Assembly: GCA_965208015.1 (NCBI GenBank)
Contig: CBDBNT010000003.1
Span: 305,832-369,831 of the forward strand
Source of the DNA: Dehalococcoidia bacterium
GTDB lineage: Bacteria > Chloroflexota > Dehalococcoidia > Lucifugimonadales > UBA3495
Direction of reading: 5' to 3'
DNA length: 64,000 bases
The translations under genes and the position numbers were made by a program. The notes beneath the pieces are model-generated. The model saw nothing but the letters and a program-made list of their open reading frames with translations, had not been told where the DNA came from and made no database searches. Shown piece by piece: positions 5,048 to 12,313 of this stretch (positions within the stretch are counted from its first letter, which is position 1; every line of letters begins with the position of its first letter).

Positions 5048-5075
5048 TTGCCAGCGGTTATGTTGCTTGTATAAT
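5048..5075 (+). promoter_or_regulatory. sigma70-like promoter (TTGCCA-16-TATAAT) for scoAB
   Basis: -35 TTGCCA at 5048-5053, -10 TATAAT at 5070-5075 (TGtATAAT), about 80 nt upstream of scoA. Confidence 0.6.
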
Positions 5076-5922: not shown

Positions 5923-6612
5923 ATGACTACCGCGGACAAGCCCCGCCTCTCCCGGCAAACCATGTGCGACCGCCTTGCCATGGAGTTCCAGGATGGTTGG
6001 ATCGTGAACCTGGGTGTGGGTATGCCAACTCTTTGCTCCAACTACCTGGAGTGCGAGCCGGACAAGGAGATAATCTTTCATTCCGAAAACGGGGTGATCG
6101 GATTTGGTCCGTTGGCCCCGGCCGGGGAAGAAGACCGGCACCTGGTCAACGCCGGCGGCCAGAACGTGGTTGCCCTGCCCGGCATGGCCATCGTGCATCA
6201 CGCCGATTCGTTCGGGATCATCAGGAAGGGCATGGTGGACGTGACGGTGATGGGAGCGTACGAGGTCTCCGAGAACGGCGATTTCGCCAATTGGCGCATA
6301 CCGGTCCGCAAGGGCGGCGGCATCGGCGGCGCCATGGACCTGGCCGCCTGCGCCAAGCGCGTGTTCATCGCCATGGAGCACAACCAGCGCAACGGCGCGC
6401 CTCGCGTGCTCAAGCAATGCAACCTGCCCATCACCGCGCCGGGCGTGGTCAAGCTGCTGGCCACGGATCTGGGCCTGTTCGAGATCACGGAAGACGGCTT
6501 TGTCCTGCGCGAGCACGCCCCCGGCTGGTCCCCGGAGGACATCCAGGAGCAGACCGAGGCGAAACTGATCATCGCCGACGACCTGCGGGAGATGCGGGTG
6601 CGGCCGGCGTAG
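5923..6612 (+). CDS. scoB: 3-oxoacid CoA-transferase subunit B
   Basis: 229 aa with the catalytic-Glu motif FHSENGVIGFGP (SENG) of beta subunits. Confidence 0.9.
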   Translation: MTTADKPRLSRQTMCDRLAMEFQDGWIVNLGVGMPTLCSNYLECEPDKEIIFHSENGVIGFGPLAPAGEEDRHLVNAGGQNVVALPGMAIVHHADSFGIIRKGMVDVTVMGAYEVSENGDFANWRIPVRKGGGIGGAMDLAACAKRVFIAMEHNQRNGAPRVLKQCNLPITAPGVVKLLATDLGLFEITEDGFVLREHAPGWSPEDIQEQTEAKLIIADDLREMRVRPA

Positions 6613-6626
6613 CCACACAGCCAACC

Positions 6627-7763
6627 ATGTACACGTCCTTCAGCATCGAAAACTTCCGCCTGTTTGACCAACTGACGGTGGAACCCCTGGCCCGCGTCAA
6701 CCTGATCGCGGGCCAAAACAACGCCGGCAAGACTGCATTGCTGGAGGCGCTGTGGCTGCACAACGGGCAGAACAACCCGGAGCTAGCGCAACGCATAAAC
6801 TTGTGGCGTGGCTTGCCTGGCGGGGAACCGGGAGAGTTGTTTTCGGAGCTCTTCCGAGATTATCAAACTGACCTGCCCATCAGGTTGACCGCCGTTCGGG
6901 ACCGTGCAATGGGTGCCCGAACCTTGACCATAGTCCGTCAGCTGATAGCAGAGCGCACTAGCACACTAACTCCGACACTTTCCACTGGCGCTGAAACCCG
7001 AAGAACTCCACCGCAAAACATATATGAACATGAAATCGTGTTCGAGTACGTGGATAAAACCGGGGACTTGTTCCCATCCCGCGCTTGGGTAGAACTCACC
7101 CCGTTACCGTTTGAACTGCCCGTCCCTCCCGGCGTCCAATTTGATGGAAACGTAGCTGCCCTTCGCGCTGAAAGAGGGGCCAGCAGCAGTGACCGGAGAA
7201 GTAGCGTTTTTATGCAATCTCTTGGACGCATTGGTCCGCCGGAACTGGCGGCTCGTTTTGGACGCGCAGAAATCGGAGGCTACTTAGGCGATGTGGAAGA
7301 GGTGATGCGTCTGATAGAACCTCGCTTGCGTCGCCTAACCGCTGTACCCAGCGCAGATGGATCGGCATTGGTATATGGCGACGTCGGTACTGGCCGCATT
7401 ATGCCGGTGTCCTTGATGGGCAGCGGTTTCGCACGTTTCTTGGAATTGACACTTGCATTTCAAGAGGTTCGCGACGGCTCAATCCTTATTGATGAAATTG
7501 AGAATGGACTGCACTACGCAGTGCTGAACGGTGTGTGGTGCGCGATCAATCGCCTTTCCCAGAAGTTCAACGTCCAAGTTTTTGCCACCACCCACAGCTA
7601 CGAGTGCATCGTCGCCGCAAACAAAGCGTTCACCGAGATGGAATCAGATGAGCTGCACCTGCATCGTCTATACCGGCGCAGCGGATCAGAGCCAGTAAGG
7701 GCAATAACGTACACCAAGGATATGTTGGATACTAATATCGAATTCTTTTGGGAGTTGAGATGA
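6627..7763 (+). CDS. ABC/SMC-like AAA_21-type ATPase (378 aa), candidate defence-system ATPase
   Basis: MYTSFSIENFRLFD..., Walker A GQNNAGKT, long insert, Walker B SILIDEIENGLH, then FATTHS. Start is ATG 6627; the upstream 221 codons of track ORF 5964..7763 overlap scoB in another frame. G+C is lower than the flanks. Confidence 0.8.
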   Translation: MYTSFSIENFRLFDQLTVEPLARVNLIAGQNNAGKTALLEALWLHNGQNNPELAQRINLWRGLPGGEPGELFSELFRDYQTDLPIRLTAVRDRAMGARTLTIVRQLIAERTSTLTPTLSTGAETRRTPPQNIYEHEIVFEYVDKTGDLFPSRAWVELTPLPFELPVPPGVQFDGNVAALRAERGASSSDRRSSVFMQSLGRIGPPELAARFGRAEIGGYLGDVEEVMRLIEPRLRRLTAVPSADGSALVYGDVGTGRIMPVSLMGSGFARFLELTLAFQEVRDGSILIDEIENGLHYAVLNGVWCAINRLSQKFNVQVFATTHSYECIVAANKAFTEMESDELHLHRLYRRSGSEPVRAITYTKDMLDTNIEFFWELR

Positions 7764-8422
7764 TGGCGACGCGACAAGAAGGTTCGCAAGTCATTCATCT
7801 CGAACGCCCCTGTCTGCTTCTGGTTGAAGGGGCGGATGACTATTGGTTTTTCCGGCGGATCATCGAGCGTCGACAAAGTGCAGGCATACAAATTATCGAA
7901 TTCGGTGGGAAGGATACGCTGGGTGAATTTTTGACAAACGTCCTTGTTCCCCGTGTCCGGGGTACTGATATAGTCCGGATCATCGGCATAGTGAGAGATG
8001 CCGATGATTTTTATGACCGTGCGTACCAGAGTGTTGGCGACTCCCTGAGGCGCGCCCGCTTGCCCGTCCCCCGAGGGCCACTAATGTATGCGAATGGCAT
8101 GCTAGACGACACTACCATTCGAACAGCAGCGTATATCATTCCCGACAATGGTTCGCCGGGCGACCTCGAAACCTTGTGCCTTCAAGCAGTCCGTGATGTG
8201 CCGGCAATCCCCTGTGTTGACGGTTATTTCGACTGCTTGGAGCTAATAGGCCACGTTCCCCGCCAGGAAAGCAAAGCCCGCTTACAAGCTTTCCTTGCGG
8301 CGAACCCGGACAATCCCACATTGCGGATCGGGGAAGCAATCGCAGCCGGCGTCATCCCTTGGAACAGCCCGGCGTTCACCGGCGTCCACCAATTCCTGGA
8401 TATGCTGGACGCCGCCAACTAG
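7760..8422 (+). CDS. TOPRIM-like (DUF4435/DUF3226-style) protein, 220 aa, partner of the ATPase
   Basis: ATGA overlap with the ATPase stop (7760-7763). LLLVEGADDYWFF (conserved Glu) and IGIVRDADDF (DxD) acidic motifs as in OLD/TOPRIM-type nucleases. Confidence 0.7.
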   Translation: MMATRQEGSQVIHLERPCLLLVEGADDYWFFRRIIERRQSAGIQIIEFGGKDTLGEFLTNVLVPRVRGTDIVRIIGIVRDADDFYDRAYQSVGDSLRRARLPVPRGPLMYANGMLDDTTIRTAAYIIPDNGSPGDLETLCLQAVRDVPAIPCVDGYFDCLELIGHVPRQESKARLQAFLAANPDNPTLRIGEAIAAGVIPWNSPAFTGVHQFLDMLDAAN

Positions 8423-8449
8423 GTTCACACGACGCCAGGCGATCCCACA

Positions 8450-9574
8450 TCACCGCAGCACCCGGTTCAGCGCCGCGTGCCGACCCGGGTCCAGGTCCTT
8501 CCCGGCAAGGGCCGGGTGGTCGGGGCTGTAGCGGTGACAGCGGAAGGTGGCGTTAGTGTATTCCATGCCGCCACCGCCACCAGCGGCTTCGCTGTAGAGG
8601 AAGAACGGGTTGATGTACTCCCAGACGATCTCGCCTCGGGGAGTGACCTCGAACATGCGGCCCGGCGCGCCCTCGCAGATCAGCGTGTTGCCGTTGGGCT
8701 GCCGCTCCGCGCTGCTGATGTTGTAGCTGTAGAAGGAAATGGCGGGCATTCCCCGGTACTCCCAATGGATCTCGTTGGTTGCCGGGTCCACCTCCACGAC
8801 GCGGGAGAAACTGGTGCCGGGCCGGTGGGACCCGTTGTCGAAGATCAGCACCCGTCCGTTGTCCAGCCAGGTTGGATGATGTTGCTGGTAAATCTCGCCC
8901 GGGCCCCACTTCCACTTGAAGGCTCCAGTGGCACGGTCCACGATGCCCACGGTGCTGGTCAAACGGTAGCTGACCAGCAGGTCACCGTCAGGCGTGACGT
9001 TCAGGCAATTCCCGTGGGTCCATTCCCGCCGGGCATCCGGACCGATAATGTCTTCGGTCGGATCCAGATGCTCCCAGGATTTCCACTCCCAAACAGTCGC
9101 GCCGTCCGGCGTCACTTCACGAACCACGTCGCCAAGCATCCCGGGGGCAAAATCCACCTCGAAGCCTCCCTGTACCTGGTCTTCCAGACCATCGGGCAGC
9201 GGCTCCCACAGCAGCAGCAGAGTGTTGCCATTGGGCAGGCGCTCATAGTCATGGTGGAGCGTGTTGTCCCGGTAGGCCCAGACCAGATTGCTGTCCCAGT
9301 CCAGTTCGATGATGCTGGCCGAGGAGCCGCCTACCGTCTCGATGCCGCCGGCGTCCTCGGGCGGTAAGGTACGGCACAGCAGGTTGCCGTTGTCCAGCAA
9401 GTAGGAATAGTGGATGCCCTCAGGAGAATGCCACCGGTGGACGACGTTGCCCTGCATATCAATCAGGTAAGCGTCCTTGCCGCCGCGCGTGGTCGAAAAA
9501 AGCGTGTAGCCGCGATTGCACGCTGCGGGTGTGTGATGGATCAGTCCGACTGGATGGTGAATCGACCAGCCCAT
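8450..9574 (-). CDS. Arylsulfotransferase (ASST)-like beta-propeller protein
   Basis: 374 aa with repeated NGN(L/T)L and W-E-W/Y blades, resembling the aryl-sulfate sulfotransferase family. Assignment from motif memory only. Confidence 0.6.
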   Translation of the reverse strand: MGWSIHHPVGLIHHTPAACNRGYTLFSTTRGGKDAYLIDMQGNVVHRWHSPEGIHYSYLLDNGNLLCRTLPPEDAGGIETVGGSSASIIELDWDSNLVWAYRDNTLHHDYERLPNGNTLLLLWEPLPDGLEDQVQGGFEVDFAPGMLGDVVREVTPDGATVWEWKSWEHLDPTEDIIGPDARREWTHGNCLNVTPDGDLLVSYRLTSTVGIVDRATGAFKWKWGPGEIYQQHHPTWLDNGRVLIFDNGSHRPGTSFSRVVEVDPATNEIHWEYRGMPAISFYSYNISSAERQPNGNTLICEGAPGRMFEVTPRGEIVWEYINPFFLYSEAAGGGGGMEYTNATFRCHRYSPDHPALAGKDLDPGRHAALNRVLR

Positions 9575-9740: not shown

Positions 9741-10637
9741 GTGTGGATCTTCCTGGCCATCTGTAGCGCCGCTTCGCTCGGCCTCGCGAACGTTGCCCAC
9801 AAAAGGCTGCTGGACAACTACCTTGAGGGAGTTGGAGCGCTGGGCGCCGGTTCGATCGTTACACGATCTGTATGCGCGGCAATAATCCTGATCGCCATGG
9901 GCTGGCCGGTGGGCGCGCCGGCTCAATCGGTTGCCATCGCCCTGCTGTCGGGCGTGAGCTTGGGGTCAGGGCTTCTGCTGCTGTTCCTGGGCCTCAAACT
10001 GGGCGAGGCCTCGCGCGCCGTGGCGGTAAGTCAAACCAACCCGATACTGGTCGCCCTGCTGGCGATGGTGATACTGGGTGAGACCATCACCGCCCCGCAG
10101 TGGGCGGCGATTGCGCTGGTGGTCGTCGGTGTCGCGCTGGTTTCCATTGAAGGATTCGGCCGTGGGCTGCTGAGACTGACGCCGGGGCTGACGGTGCTGG
10201 TGGGCAGTTCCATCACCCTGGGCCTGTCGTTCTTCCTGGCCAAACTGGTGCTGACCGACCTGACGCCGTGGGAAGTGTTCGGGTTGCAGGAACTGGGGAT
10301 GGTGCCGGCCTTCGCGGTTTACGGACGGCCGGAAAACTGGCGTCGGTTATTCCGCGGATTGCGTTCCGGGCCAGGTCTGGCGACTTTCGTCATCGGTGAG
10401 GGCTTGCTGCCCCAGTTGGCCATCATGCTGTTCATCTGGTCCTTCAGCCTCGGGCCGGTGTCGCTGGCGTCGGCGATCCTGGCCACCCGTCCGCTGTTCG
10501 TGTTCGTGGTGGGCACGATGCTCAGCTGGCGGACGTTCGGGATGATGCAGGAATCGCTGCGGCCCAGCGCGCTGGCAGCCAAGGGCGTCGCCATCCTGAT
10601 GATCGTCGGCGGGACGACGGTGCTGGCTGCGCTATGA
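9741..10637 (+). CDS. EamA/DMT-family transporter
   Basis: 298 aa, about 10 hydrophobic helices arranged as two EamA-like halves. Confidence 0.8.
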   Translation: MWIFLAICSAASLGLANVAHKRLLDNYLEGVGALGAGSIVTRSVCAAIILIAMGWPVGAPAQSVAIALLSGVSLGSGLLLLFLGLKLGEASRAVAVSQTNPILVALLAMVILGETITAPQWAAIALVVVGVALVSIEGFGRGLLRLTPGLTVLVGSSITLGLSFFLAKLVLTDLTPWEVFGLQELGMVPAFAVYGRPENWRRLFRGLRSGPGLATFVIGEGLLPQLAIMLFIWSFSLGPVSLASAILATRPLFVFVVGTMLSWRTFGMMQESLRPSALAAKGVAILMIVGGTTVLAAL

Positions 10638-10648
10638 CGATGGGCAGC

Positions 10649-11317
10649 CTATCCTGGGCCGGGGGTGGCTCCACTGTCCGGCCGGCGGGAGCGCACTGCC
10701 CAGAAGTGCACCGCACCCACCACTATGAAGATGCCCAGGCAGTAACCAACGGCTCCCCAACCGACGCCAAAAACCGCTCGGGCCAGCGCCATGGAGGTCA
10801 GATAGATGAACGGCAGCGCGATAATGGTGCTTCTGGTAAGCAGCAGGACCGCGATGCACGGCAGTGCCATAATCAGCACCGCGGCGGGCAGCGCGGCGCC
10901 GGTAATCCCCAAGGCCGTAGCCGCTCCGCGACCGCCGTGAAATTTCAGCCAGACCGGCCAGATTTGCCCGGCCATGGCAGCGGCGCCGGCCAGCATTCCT
11001 GCCGGAGTCAAGGCGAAGACCGGTGCTAGTGAGTCGGGCAATCCGGAAGGGCTGCCGGCCAGCGCGGGGTTGACCAGACGGAACAGCAGGTTGAACGCCA
11101 GCACCGCCGCCACGCCTTTGGCGATGTCCACGGCTCCCACCAGAATGGCCCAACGCCGGCCGCAGATGCGGTTGACGTTGTTGGCCCCGGCGTTCCCGTC
11201 GCCGGCCTGACGGATGTCAACCGCGCCGCTGGTGACCCATCGCACTACCAGGTAGGCGGTGGGTATGCTGCCCAGCAGGTAGCCCCCCAGGGCGGCCGCG
11301 CCGAGCAGCCCGAGCAT
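10649..11317 (-). CDS. plsY: Glycerol-3-phosphate acyltransferase PlsY
   Basis: GSIPTAYLV and GDGNAGANNV motifs, multi-TM, typical length. Confidence 0.85.
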   Translation of the reverse strand: MLGLLGAAALGGYLLGSIPTAYLVVRWVTSGAVDIRQAGDGNAGANNVNRICGRRWAILVGAVDIAKGVAAVLAFNLLFRLVNPALAGSPSGLPDSLAPVFALTPAGMLAGAAAMAGQIWPVWLKFHGGRGAATALGITGAALPAAVLIMALPCIAVLLLTRSTIIALPFIYLTSMALARAVFGVGWGAVGYCLGIFIVVGAVHFWAVRSRRPDSGATPGPG

Positions 11318-11344
11318 CGCCGCTTCTCCGGCGGGGCGACCTCC

Positions 11345-12313
11345 CTAGGCCGGTACCAGGCCCGCAGTCTTTACCGAGGTGCACCAGTGCCGGTACTTGG
11401 GATTGTTGCCGACCACGATGTCGAAGTACATCCGCTGCAGTTGCGTCGTGATCGGGCCGGGTTGCCCGTCGGCGATGGGTCGAAAGTCCAACTCCACCAC
11501 CGGGGTCAGGTGGGCCGCGGTGCCGCTGAGGAACACCTCGTCCGCAAGGTACAACTCGCTGCGGTCGATGGTGCGCATCTGCACTTCCATCCCCAACTCG
11601 GCGGCGGCCAACTGCATGATCGTGTCGCGGGTGATTCCGCCGAGGACGTTGTCCTCCAGCGGCGGGGTGTAGATGACACCTTTCTTGACCATGAAGATGT
11701 TTTCGCCGGAACCTTCCGACACGTGGCCGTCATGGTTGAGCAGGATGGCCTCGTCGAAGCCGGCGATGGTGGCCTCGGTCTTGGCGAGGATGCTGTTGAT
11801 GTAGATGCCGCAAGCCTTGATGCGCGCCGGTATCATCGGGTCGTCGACCCGGCGCCAGGAGGACGTGCAGCAGCGCAGCCGGTCGCTCCCCAGGTAGTTG
11901 CCGAAAGGCACCGTGATCAGGGTGAAGTCCGACGCCAATTCCTGCAACTTCAGGTTGGCCACCAGCTCCTCGCTCTTGTACGCGAGGGGCCTGATGTAAA
12001 TGTCCGAGTCGTGACGGTTGCGCTCGACCAAATCAACCGTGATGTCGCAGAGTTGGTCGGCGGAATAAGGGATGTCCAGCATCAGGATGCGGCATCCGTC
12101 CAGCAGCCGCTCGTAGTGCTCCCGCATGCGGAAGATGTTGATCGCGCCCTGTTCCTGGTTCCAGTTGCCGCGGATACCCTCGAATACGCCCGTCCCGTAG
12201 TGGAGGGCGTGGGTCATTACACTTACCCTGGCCTCGCTGGCTGGTACAAACTGCCCGCGGAAAAACACTTGCAGTTCATCGGCGTTGAAGGAAGCCTGGC
12301 CATTGGTAGTCAC
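11345..12313 (-). CDS. ilvE: Branched-chain amino acid aminotransferase
   Basis: 322 aa class IV aminotransferase pattern (HYGTGVFEGIRG, EGSGENIF). GTG start after AAGGGGG SD. Confidence 0.9.
   Translation of the reverse strand: MTTNGQASFNADELQVFFRGQFVPASEARVSVMTHALHYGTGVFEGIRGNWNQEQGAINIFRMREHYERLLDGCRILMLDIPYSADQLCDITVDLVERNRHDSDIYIRPLAYKSEELVANLKLQELASDFTLITVPFGNYLGSDRLRCCTSSWRRVDDPMIPARIKACGIYINSILAKTEATIAGFDEAILLNHDGHVSEGSGENIFMVKKGVIYTPPLEDNVLGGITRDTIMQLAAAELGMEVQMRTIDRSELYLADEVFLSGTAAHLTPVVELDFRPIADGQPGPITTQLQRMYFDIVVGNNPKYRHWCTSVKTAGLVPA

Follow-up and report, generated by a model that had tools for sequence, protein, structure and literature searches.

A compact ATPase and TOPRIM-like gene pair behind scoAB in Dehalococcoidia, a candidate anti-phage module of the DUF3226 type

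Architecture of the gene pair

The DNA analysed here is a 64-kb stretch (the window; all positions refer to it) of contig CBDBNT010000003.1, from a SAR202-type Dehalococcoidia clade of uncultured marine or sponge Chloroflexi. Directly after the CoA-transferase genes scoA and scoB it carries two overlapping genes, named here gene 1 and gene 2, encoding a predicted ABC-type ATPase and a small TOPRIM-like protein of the Pfam family DUF3226 (Table 1). A first-pass annotation made from the letters alone had proposed this pair as a candidate AbiL/PARIS-like defence module; the ATGA coupling, the open reading frame (ORF) coordinates and all the motifs that it quoted were found in the ORF list and translations, as were the 14-nt gap after scoB (which ends at 6612) and the convergent gene after gene 2. 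The ATGA-type junction between gene 1 and gene 2 recurs in most of the related loci, and in the copies from an Escherichia coli plasmid and a P4 satellite described below.

Gene 1 matched the Pfam families AAA_15 (9e-18, 65.4 bits) and AAA_21 (4e-16, 60.4 bits). Its best PADLOC model was PDC-M38A (PDLC04611, 5.3e-53, 178.9 bits), with further matches to AbiLi (PDLC02336, 6.1e-47) and then AriA (6e-22); PADLOC matches were judged throughout by E-value and bit score. NCBIfam gave sub-threshold P-loop matches only. The N-terminal 44 residues matched RecF, RecN, Rad50 and SMC models, and the NCBIfam match to recF (TIGR00611) failed its threshold, with 34.9 bits against a cut-off of 172 and residues 4-44 only. 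The AlphaFold model (predicted local distance difference test score, pLDDT, 85.4) retrieved SMC heads, PtuA, Thermus OLD (6p74), GajA, Rad50 and retron ATPases in Foldseek (E ~1e-11). Among 57 homologues the Walker A residues K35 and T36 are at least 90% conserved and G29, N32 and G34 invariant, as are D289 and E290 of Walker B and A320, T321, T322, H323 and S324 of the H-loop. With Walker A, Walker B and its glutamate, the H-loop and, in the model, an ABC head fold, gene 1 is a predicted ABC/SMC-type ATPase, as the first-pass annotation had read it from an AAA_21-like layout. Walker A and Walker B enclose a segment that in the model is beta-rich and partly of low confidence. Identity by block in 14 syntenic alleles is 24-60% in residues 46-285 versus 91-96% in residues 1-45, with the most variable stretch at residues 91-135 (24-33%) and 96% in the H-loop block.

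Gene 2 matched DUF3226 (PF11536) over profile positions 3-205 of 208 (3.7e-24, 86.1 bits, gathering cut-off 27). Among the PADLOC models it matched those of PDC-M38B alone, and weakly (PDLC04624, 1.8e-8, 32.4 bits, residues 18-204 of 220); there was no match to DUF4435 in Pfam at E <= 1, to the AriB model in PADLOC, or to any AbiLii model among the PADLOC models at E <= 1. All the 196 database homologues carry PF11536 and several carry PF20469 (OLD-like_TOPRIM); an exact-sequence look-up of gene 2 returned no record. In the AlphaFold model (pLDDT 92.9) strands and helices succeed one another as in TOPRIM domains, Glu23 following strand 1 (18-22) and D80-A81-D82 following strand 3 (74-80). Its top fold match in the PDB was 6nk8, the TOPRIM C-terminal region of a Burkholderia pseudomallei OLD protein (probability 0.97, TM-score 0.45-0.54, E 8e-3), followed by a chain of the PARIS complex, and Foldseek against viral predicted structures gave just weak TOPRIM/DnaG/RloB-like matches. 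Single-sequence phmmer searches of both proteins against PDB sequences found nothing significant; profile searches reached 2p62, PtuA and AriA, the latter at 1.2e-4 with the gene 1 profile. The gene 2 family profile led to 2p62 (Pyrococcus horikoshii PH0156, function unassigned; 1.8e-4), the sole solved relative. The TOPRIM-like character previously proposed for gene 2 was borne out by the DUF3226 match, the conserved glutamate and DxD, the strand order of the model and the 6nk8 fold match, and by analogy its product is a putative metal-dependent nuclease effector.

Three cysteines (Cys140, Cys152 and Cys159) accompany the acidic residues. They are missing from enterobacterial DUF3226 homologues, indicating that the triad is a subfamily feature. 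The comparison with OLD and other TOPRIM proteins does not account for it; a metal or redox role is possible.

Table 1 Features of the gene pair and its surroundings in the window. Residue counts in gene 2 refer to 135 family representatives, mutually at most 50% identical.
Feature	Position	Strand	Basis or conservation
Gene 1	6627..7763	+	378-aa ORF (ORF listing, translation)
Walker A / P-loop GQNNAGKT, aa 29-36	6711..6734	+	translation
Hypervariable insert, aa 46-285, candidate sensor region	6762..7481	+	identity blocks, model
Walker B ILIDE, aa 286-290, putative catalytic Glu290; inside SILIDEIENGLH, aa 285-296	7482..7496	+	translation
H-loop FATTHS, aa 319-324	7581..7598	+	translation
ATGA overlap, gene 1 stop / gene 2 start	7760-7763	+	sequence and translations
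Gene 2	7760..8422	+	220-aa ORF (ORF listing, translation)
LLLVEG, aa 19-24, strand 1 and TOPRIM Glu23; inside LLLVEGADDYWFF, aa 19-31	7814..7831	+	E23 133/135
DxD D80-A81-D82; inside IGIVRDADDF, aa 75-84	7997..8005	+	D80 135/135, D/E82 125/135
E137	8168-8170	+	133/135
C140	8177-8179	+	121/135
C152	8213-8215	+	135/135
C159	8234-8236	+	135/135
K172	8273-8275	+	132/135
Convergent downstream gene, 374 aa	8450..9574	-	27 nt beyond gene 2
Sigma-70-like promoter match TTGCCA-16-TATAAT, 11/12, upstream of scoA	5048..5075	+	consensus match only

The pair differs from its surroundings in base composition: G+C is 55.0% in the pair, 62.1% in scoAB, 62.8% in the downstream gene and 62.7% in the whole window, and no other 1.8-kb stretch of the 64 kb is as low in G+C, the pair lying about 3.8 standard deviations under the mean (0.627, standard deviation 0.020). 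The same dip (0.49-0.59 compared with 0.61-0.64) is present in 16 of 16 syntenic genomes. The dip noticed in the first-pass annotation is real, but its size was overstated, the three sampled 60-nt lines (45.0, 41.7 and 80.0%) being extreme. The only sigma-70-like match ahead of the pair is that upstream of scoA, a candidate promoter for a scoA-scoB-gene 1-gene 2 transcript; the consensus scan found no promoter-like site in the 14-nt gap between scoB and gene 1, and terminator-like sites did not exceed the shuffled expectation in the same scan. We infer from these signals that co-transcription of the pair with scoAB is plausible. Scans of the window for tRNA genes and Rfam families gave a single tRNA-Ser, distant from the pair.

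Allelic variation at the scoAB site

The pair stands after scoA-scoB in 16 of 16 Dehalococcoidia loci (loci are given L numbers where they have to be told apart). The nearest relative, L044, is a sponge-metagenome contig which shares the housekeeping neighbourhood and has a gene 1 97% identical to that of the window; its counterpart of the downstream 374-aa gene has arylsulfotransferase Pfam matches. Pairwise comparison of the 13 genomes with the shared downstream gene gave median protein identities of 98.9% for scoA, 97.4% for scoB and 92.0% for the downstream gene, and of 49.6% for gene 1 and 61.7% for gene 2. DNA identity is 85-96% in the flanks; from about 6800 to 8400 it is only 62-75% or too low to be detected.

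The alleles of gene 1 group into discrete classes which those of gene 2 do not parallel (L006 and L016 are 93% identical in gene 1 and 67% in gene 2). Comparison of different classes gave a synonymous divergence (dS) of 1.6-2.5, or saturation, in the pair and of 0.3-0.6 in the flanks; the ratio of nonsynonymous to synonymous divergence (dN/dS) is 0.07-0.25 in the pair, indicating that both genes are under purifying selection. Between the window and L044, which belong to the same class, the pair diverges no more than the flanks do. The explanation that the pair simply evolves fast was rejected, since divergence within a class equals that of the flanks and synonymous sites between classes are saturated. 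The gene 1 dS between L016 and L007 (0.15) is lower than that of their flanks (0.42-0.69), indicating a recent allele transfer. The proportion of synonymous differences (pS) is 0.32 in gene 1 codons 1-45, comparable to scoB (0.34), and 0.78 from codon 46 to the end, a step that places the left exchange boundary inside gene 1, just past the Walker A region. The best explanation is an ancient allelic series that extends from about codon 45 of the ATPase gene through gene 2 and is exchanged between species by homologous recombination anchored in the flanks; the pattern of alleles makes the insert of residues 46-285, the candidate sensor, the likely specificity determinant.

More distant scoB contigs (75-82% identity) lack the pair, including three with a homologue of the downstream gene nearby, and this indicates that it was acquired at the site in the ancestor of the clade. 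The earlier proposal of a small horizontally acquired insert riding on the scoAB transcript thus stands as to acquisition (the pair is absent in the outgroups), with co-transcription plausible, but not as a recent event: the insertion is fixed in the clade and its content has been repeatedly swapped. This combination of fixed anchors, deep allelic diversity, re-assortment and a non-homologous replacement is characteristic of a small defence hotspot in the sense of Rousset et al. (PMC9122126).

The replacement is found in L047 (MKWU01005841.1), a close relative with scoA at 96% and scoB at 97% identity. At the same site it carries a different overlapping pair on the opposite strand (6744-8653), formed by a 426-aa ATPase (AAA_21/AAA_15; HEC-01A 1.5e-41, mad3 2.4e-31) and a 210-aa partner (mad4 7e-9, no Pfam match). 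The partner was considered as a DUF3226 relative and rejected (hhalign probability 0.5%).

Some of the relatives show additional peculiarities around the pair. L011 (OX638345.1) has an IS5-like transposase in two frames directly after gene 2 (10681-11525, from ORF translations). L012 (9217-11910), L013 (10697-13548) and L047 (8699-11521) have, by their translations only, an extra gene resembling short-chain dehydrogenases/reductases (SDR) together with one for a 635-688 aa protein with a signal-like N-terminus and an HExxH-like motif. These two genes sit between the pair (its replacement in L047) and the downstream gene. Defence genes were considered for the additional DNA behind gene 2 in L011-L013 and rejected, this DNA being the IS5-like element or the SDR and secreted-protein genes. 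Two more distant Dehalococcoidia, L002 (8927-10001) and L004 (8900-10001), have a broken gene 1, with first ORFs of 62 and 221 aa, and an intact gene 2; either pseudogenisation or frameshifts in the assembly could account for this. Allelic replacement was also seen in a second patch, at 10600-11300 of the window, in the area of a plsY-like gene (10649..11317, minus strand): DNA identity is 82-98% with L044, L006, L016, L008, L003, L001, L009 and L010, and 55-76% with L014, L007, L011, L012 and L013, whereas the surroundings remain at 84-96%.

Distribution of the family outside the clade

Among 1.84 billion representatives, the gene 2 profile detected 6,568 clusters (50% identity) at E <= 1e-3 and 1,373 at E <= 1e-30, nearly all of about 200-230 aa. 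A genome scan (one genome per species) gave 43 loci from about seven phyla: Dehalococcoidia, Anaerolineae, Armatimonadota, Blastocatellia, Verrucomicrobiota, Planctomycetota and an Acetobacteraceae metagenome-assembled genome. Conservation of the two genes as neighbours, a check proposed in the first-pass annotation, was confirmed: a gene 1 homologue lies directly upstream of gene 2 in 41 of the 43 genome loci, the exceptions being a contig edge and a fragment, and the pair is adjacent in 12 of 13 IMG/VR viral loci, where the odd one out is again a contig edge or fragment. The split of ATPase and TOPRIM protein into two ORFs is kept in all the related loci. All nine gene 2 homologues from viral contigs belong to DUF3226, and two of them exceed the OLD-like_TOPRIM cut-off (25.1 and 27.3 bits).

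Outside Dehalococcoidia the neighbouring genes are unrelated and mostly housekeeping (19 loci); the few defence neighbours are type II methyltransferases, one restriction enzyme and one other AriA-like ATPase. Large genes upstream of the pair in L025, L017 and L041 were considered as type I restriction-modification (RM) subunits and rejected: they encode an amidohydrolase, an oxidoreductase, a glycosidase and histidine kinases. From these unrelated neighbours, the pair is a solo cassette, tied neither to a defence island nor to a metabolic operon. Consistent location of the homologues in metabolic operons, which would have counted against the defence proposal, was not found either: the link to scoAB is confined to one Dehalococcoidia clade, and elsewhere the pair lies among unrelated genes, in prophages, in a P4 satellite and on small plasmids.

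The mobile settings are of three kinds. On viral contigs the pair neighbours genes for portal, terminase, scaffold, O-like, P-like and NinB proteins, and the order in L133 (CII, O, P, ATPase and DUF3226 pair, NinB, HNH, RusA, Q) is that of a lambdoid nin region. In E. coli MB06172 (NZ_CM129887.1; L141, 5224-6932) a P4-like satellite integrated beside ssrA holds, in the interval from psu/delta to the integrase, a homologous pair whose annotations read 'AAA family ATPase' and 'DUF3226 domain-containing protein' (WP_112844573 and WP_112844574); the gene 2 of this pair is 32% identical to that of the window (2e-22). The psu-int hotspot of P4 satellites is where PARIS was discovered (PMC9122126). 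At high identity the MB06172 satellite pair occurs in one of 5,426 complete E. coli genomes. Lastly, a homologous pair is the main cargo of Rop-type (ColE1/Rop) plasmids of about 4.2-4.7 kb, such as that of E. coli NZ_CP093231.1 (L140, 781-2528), with a full-length alignment of gene 1 (4e-32) and one of gene 2 at 2e-13; the proteins of the Klebsiella/E. coli plasmid copy are WP_064765252 and WP_064765251. This plasmid pair is present in 142 PLSDB records, of which Klebsiella supplies 138; 135 of the 142 are non-mobilizable. No hits came from tblastn with either the window gene 2 as query against plasmids or a viral-contig homologue against the genomes of isolated phages; what led to the enterobacterial copies was solely a short DNA match in the ATPase gene.

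Interpretation and comparison with known systems

Taking these results together, and arguing by analogy with related systems, we consider it probable that the pair is a self-contained mobile conflict module, most likely anti-phage, of the DUF3226-type class in which an ABC-ATPase is accompanied by a separate TOPRIM nuclease (PDC-M38). The first-pass reading was supported overall: of the three observations that it had named as contrary to itself (no TOPRIM likeness in gene 2, genes not kept as neighbours, homologues in metabolic operons), none was made.

A mechanism can be modelled on those of PARIS and AbiL (PMC11464382, PMC13064643). The ATPase would oligomerise and keep the small TOPRIM protein inactive; its hypervariable beta-rich insert (residues 46-285) would recognise a phage-derived trigger, and ATP binding or hydrolysis, involving K35, E290 and H323, would release or activate the TOPRIM protein. 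The latter would then cut nucleic acid with metals held at E23, D80, D82 and E137 together with K172, the substrate being, by analogy, tRNA (as for AriB) or DNA (as for OLD and GajA), and the cutting would halt growth of the infected cell.

Several points weigh against the anti-phage interpretation. We infer the nuclease activity of gene 2, the formation of a complex and the toxicity from analogy. The gene 2 match to OLD-like_TOPRIM (PF20469; 23.1 bits, 1e-4) is 0.1 bit short of the cut-off of 23.2, and the likeness of its predicted structure to OLD is modest (Foldseek E 8e-3, TM-score ~0.5). A location in a defence island, another check proposed in the first-pass annotation, had to be rejected: defence genes are few near the pair, both here and in 19 other sampled genomes, the neighbours in the latter being mostly housekeeping. 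The allele classes of gene 1 and gene 2 do not co-vary, unlike those of a tightly co-evolving toxin-antitoxin pair. A literature search gave no main-text mention of PDC-M38 or DUF3226, and HEC-01, a related ATPase and TOPRIM candidate, gave no protection in the one published test.

A broader reading joins the allelic and the family data, and we put it forward tentatively. The site after scoB might be that of a two-gene immune receptor with an allelic series both long-lived and trans-species, in which whole cassettes of sensor insert plus effector are swapped between species by homologous recombination (the left crossover falling in the ATPase gene just after Walker A) and ATPase and TOPRIM alleles are re-assorted independently; the DUF3226 type might then be a mechanistically distinct anti-phage family, with a cysteine triad not seen in OLD or AriB and with members in hosts as far apart as uncultured marine Chloroflexi, Klebsiella (on small plasmids) and E. 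coli (in P4 satellites).

Among the alternatives, an addiction or stabilisation module, that is, a selfish pair of TOPRIM toxin and ATPase antitoxin whose loss is harmful and which has no real antiviral role, appears unlikely as the whole explanation. It would suit a pair that is the main cargo of small (about 4.2-4.7 kb) non-mobilizable ColE1/Rop-type plasmids and a solo cassette among housekeeping genes, and PARIS itself acts as a type II toxin-antitoxin pair (PMC13064643); however, addiction alone leaves unexplained the ancient shuffled allelic series and the hypervariable ATPase insert, the unrelated ATPase pair which replaces it at the same site, and the placement in the P4 psu-int hotspot and the lambdoid nin region. 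The addiction and anti-phage readings are not mutually exclusive.

That gene 2 is not a nuclease at all, but a nucleotide or signal hydrolase, or a metal- or redox-sensing partner acting through Cys140/152/159 in a mechanism unlike that of PARIS or OLD, we regard as rather improbable. The residues E23, DxD, E137 and K172 are the set of a metal-dependent TOPRIM nuclease and are conserved more widely than the cysteines, and some family members exceed the OLD-like_TOPRIM threshold; on the other side stand the modest structural and hidden Markov model links to OLD TOPRIM, two invariant cysteines (C152, C159) and a third (C140) conserved at 90% in the subfamily, for which the OLD nucleases offer no explanation, and a sole solved relative, 2p62, without an assigned function.

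A housekeeping DNA repair or recombination pair, like RecF/RecR or SbcCD, is very improbable. RecR is a TOPRIM protein of about 200 aa, and the first 44 residues of gene 1 match RecF, RecN, Rad50 and SMC models, but the recF score falls far below its cut-off and covers the P-loop region only. Nor does a repair function fit the patchy mobile distribution (prophages, satellites, small plasmids), alleles that share about 50% identity in species with flanking proteins at 92-99%, or outgroup genomes that bear scoB without the pair. Finally, a functional part in the scoAB metabolic operon, in spite of the same strand, the 14-nt gap with no separate promoter match and the position behind scoAB in all the 16 Dehalococcoidia loci, is effectively refuted by distribution: scoAB is not near the pair in 26 loci of other phyla, most metagenome scoAB loci lack the pair, in L047 the site is occupied by another pair, on the opposite strand, and the evolutionary history of the pair differs from that of scoAB.

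Pairs of ABC-ATPase and TOPRIM protein (PARIS, AbiL, OLD, Gabija) are a major theme of bacterial immunity, and the DUF3226-type branch is large. The scoAB locus is a natural experiment within this theme: close genomes, one fixed site, deeply diverged and re-assorted alleles, and one non-homologous replacement. The copies in the E. coli P4 satellite and on Klebsiella plasmids of about 4 kb allow the family to be tested directly in standard laboratory hosts; if active, it would be a new validated system for the defence catalogues and would account for what a common class of small clinical plasmids carries. The family itself was already catalogued; the population-level picture at this locus and the link to testable enterobacterial copies are added here.

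Compared with known systems, the pair shares the catalytic logic of ABC ATPase plus TOPRIM with the OLD family (P2 Old, class 2 OLD, GajA, the retron Eco8 effector), and both proteins have structural relatives there, gene 2 being nearest in fold to 6nk8 and gene 1 matching Thermus OLD 6p74 and GajA; OLD is a single polypeptide, whereas the window has two ORFs, and the likeness in sequence is marginal (23.1 bits). HEC-01 and mad3-mad4 of MADS are likewise a compact ATPase with a small partner, and it is such a pair that replaces the DUF3226-type pair in L047, but the partner there has no detectable DUF3226 homology. With AbiL of Lactococcus and RloAB-type systems the pair has in common an AbiLi-like ATPase and a small TOPRIM/OLD-like partner (AbiL architecture in PMC13064643), and differs in that gene 2 matches no AbiLii model.

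PARIS also joins an AAA_15/AAA_21 ATPase to a separate TOPRIM-type effector, and homologous pairs occur in its P4 satellite hotspot. Under the detection rule of Rousset et al. (PMC9122126), which takes at least 32 bits for AAA_15 or at least 27 for AAA_21, and at least 27 for DUF4435, gene 1 passes as the ATPase, and it matches AriA; gene 2 has no DUF4435 or AriB match, although AriB itself matches DUF3226 by HHpred at 96.8%, ranked behind DUF4435 (Table S3 of PMC9122126). The window proteins are also shorter (378 versus 464 aa and 220 versus 306 aa), and the ATPase insert is beta-rich in the model instead of an AriA-type extension. The pair is assigned neither to PARIS nor to AbiL because gene 2 lacks a DUF4435/AriB or AbiLii match. 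By analogy it would work like both while belonging to neither, so that of the AbiL/PARIS-like label initially given to it the two-gene ATPase/TOPRIM logic is retained and membership is not.

The nearest described system is PDC-M38, a PADLOC candidate that Payne et al. (bioRxiv 10.1101/2024.01.29.577857) obtained in a guilt-by-embedding screen. Its models go back to cassettes located inside BREX, DISARM or type I RM systems, and the 145 PDCs are stated to be untested. As an untested candidate, PDC-M38 lends no known function to the pair. The window pair is not embedded in an RM, BREX or DISARM system. It agrees with PDC-M38 in that the A and B models are both matched by adjacent genes, and the lengths of 378 and 220 aa lie within those of the models (362-383 and 219-240 aa). 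The impression of a short, perhaps minimal or undescribed variant was accordingly right with respect to the PARIS proteins and wrong with respect to PDC-M38, which is already in PADLOC and for which these sizes are typical. By its profile matches the pair is assignable to the candidate system PDC-M38 and to DUF3226, and the weak PDC-M38B match (32 bits) places the window copy on a divergent branch of it.

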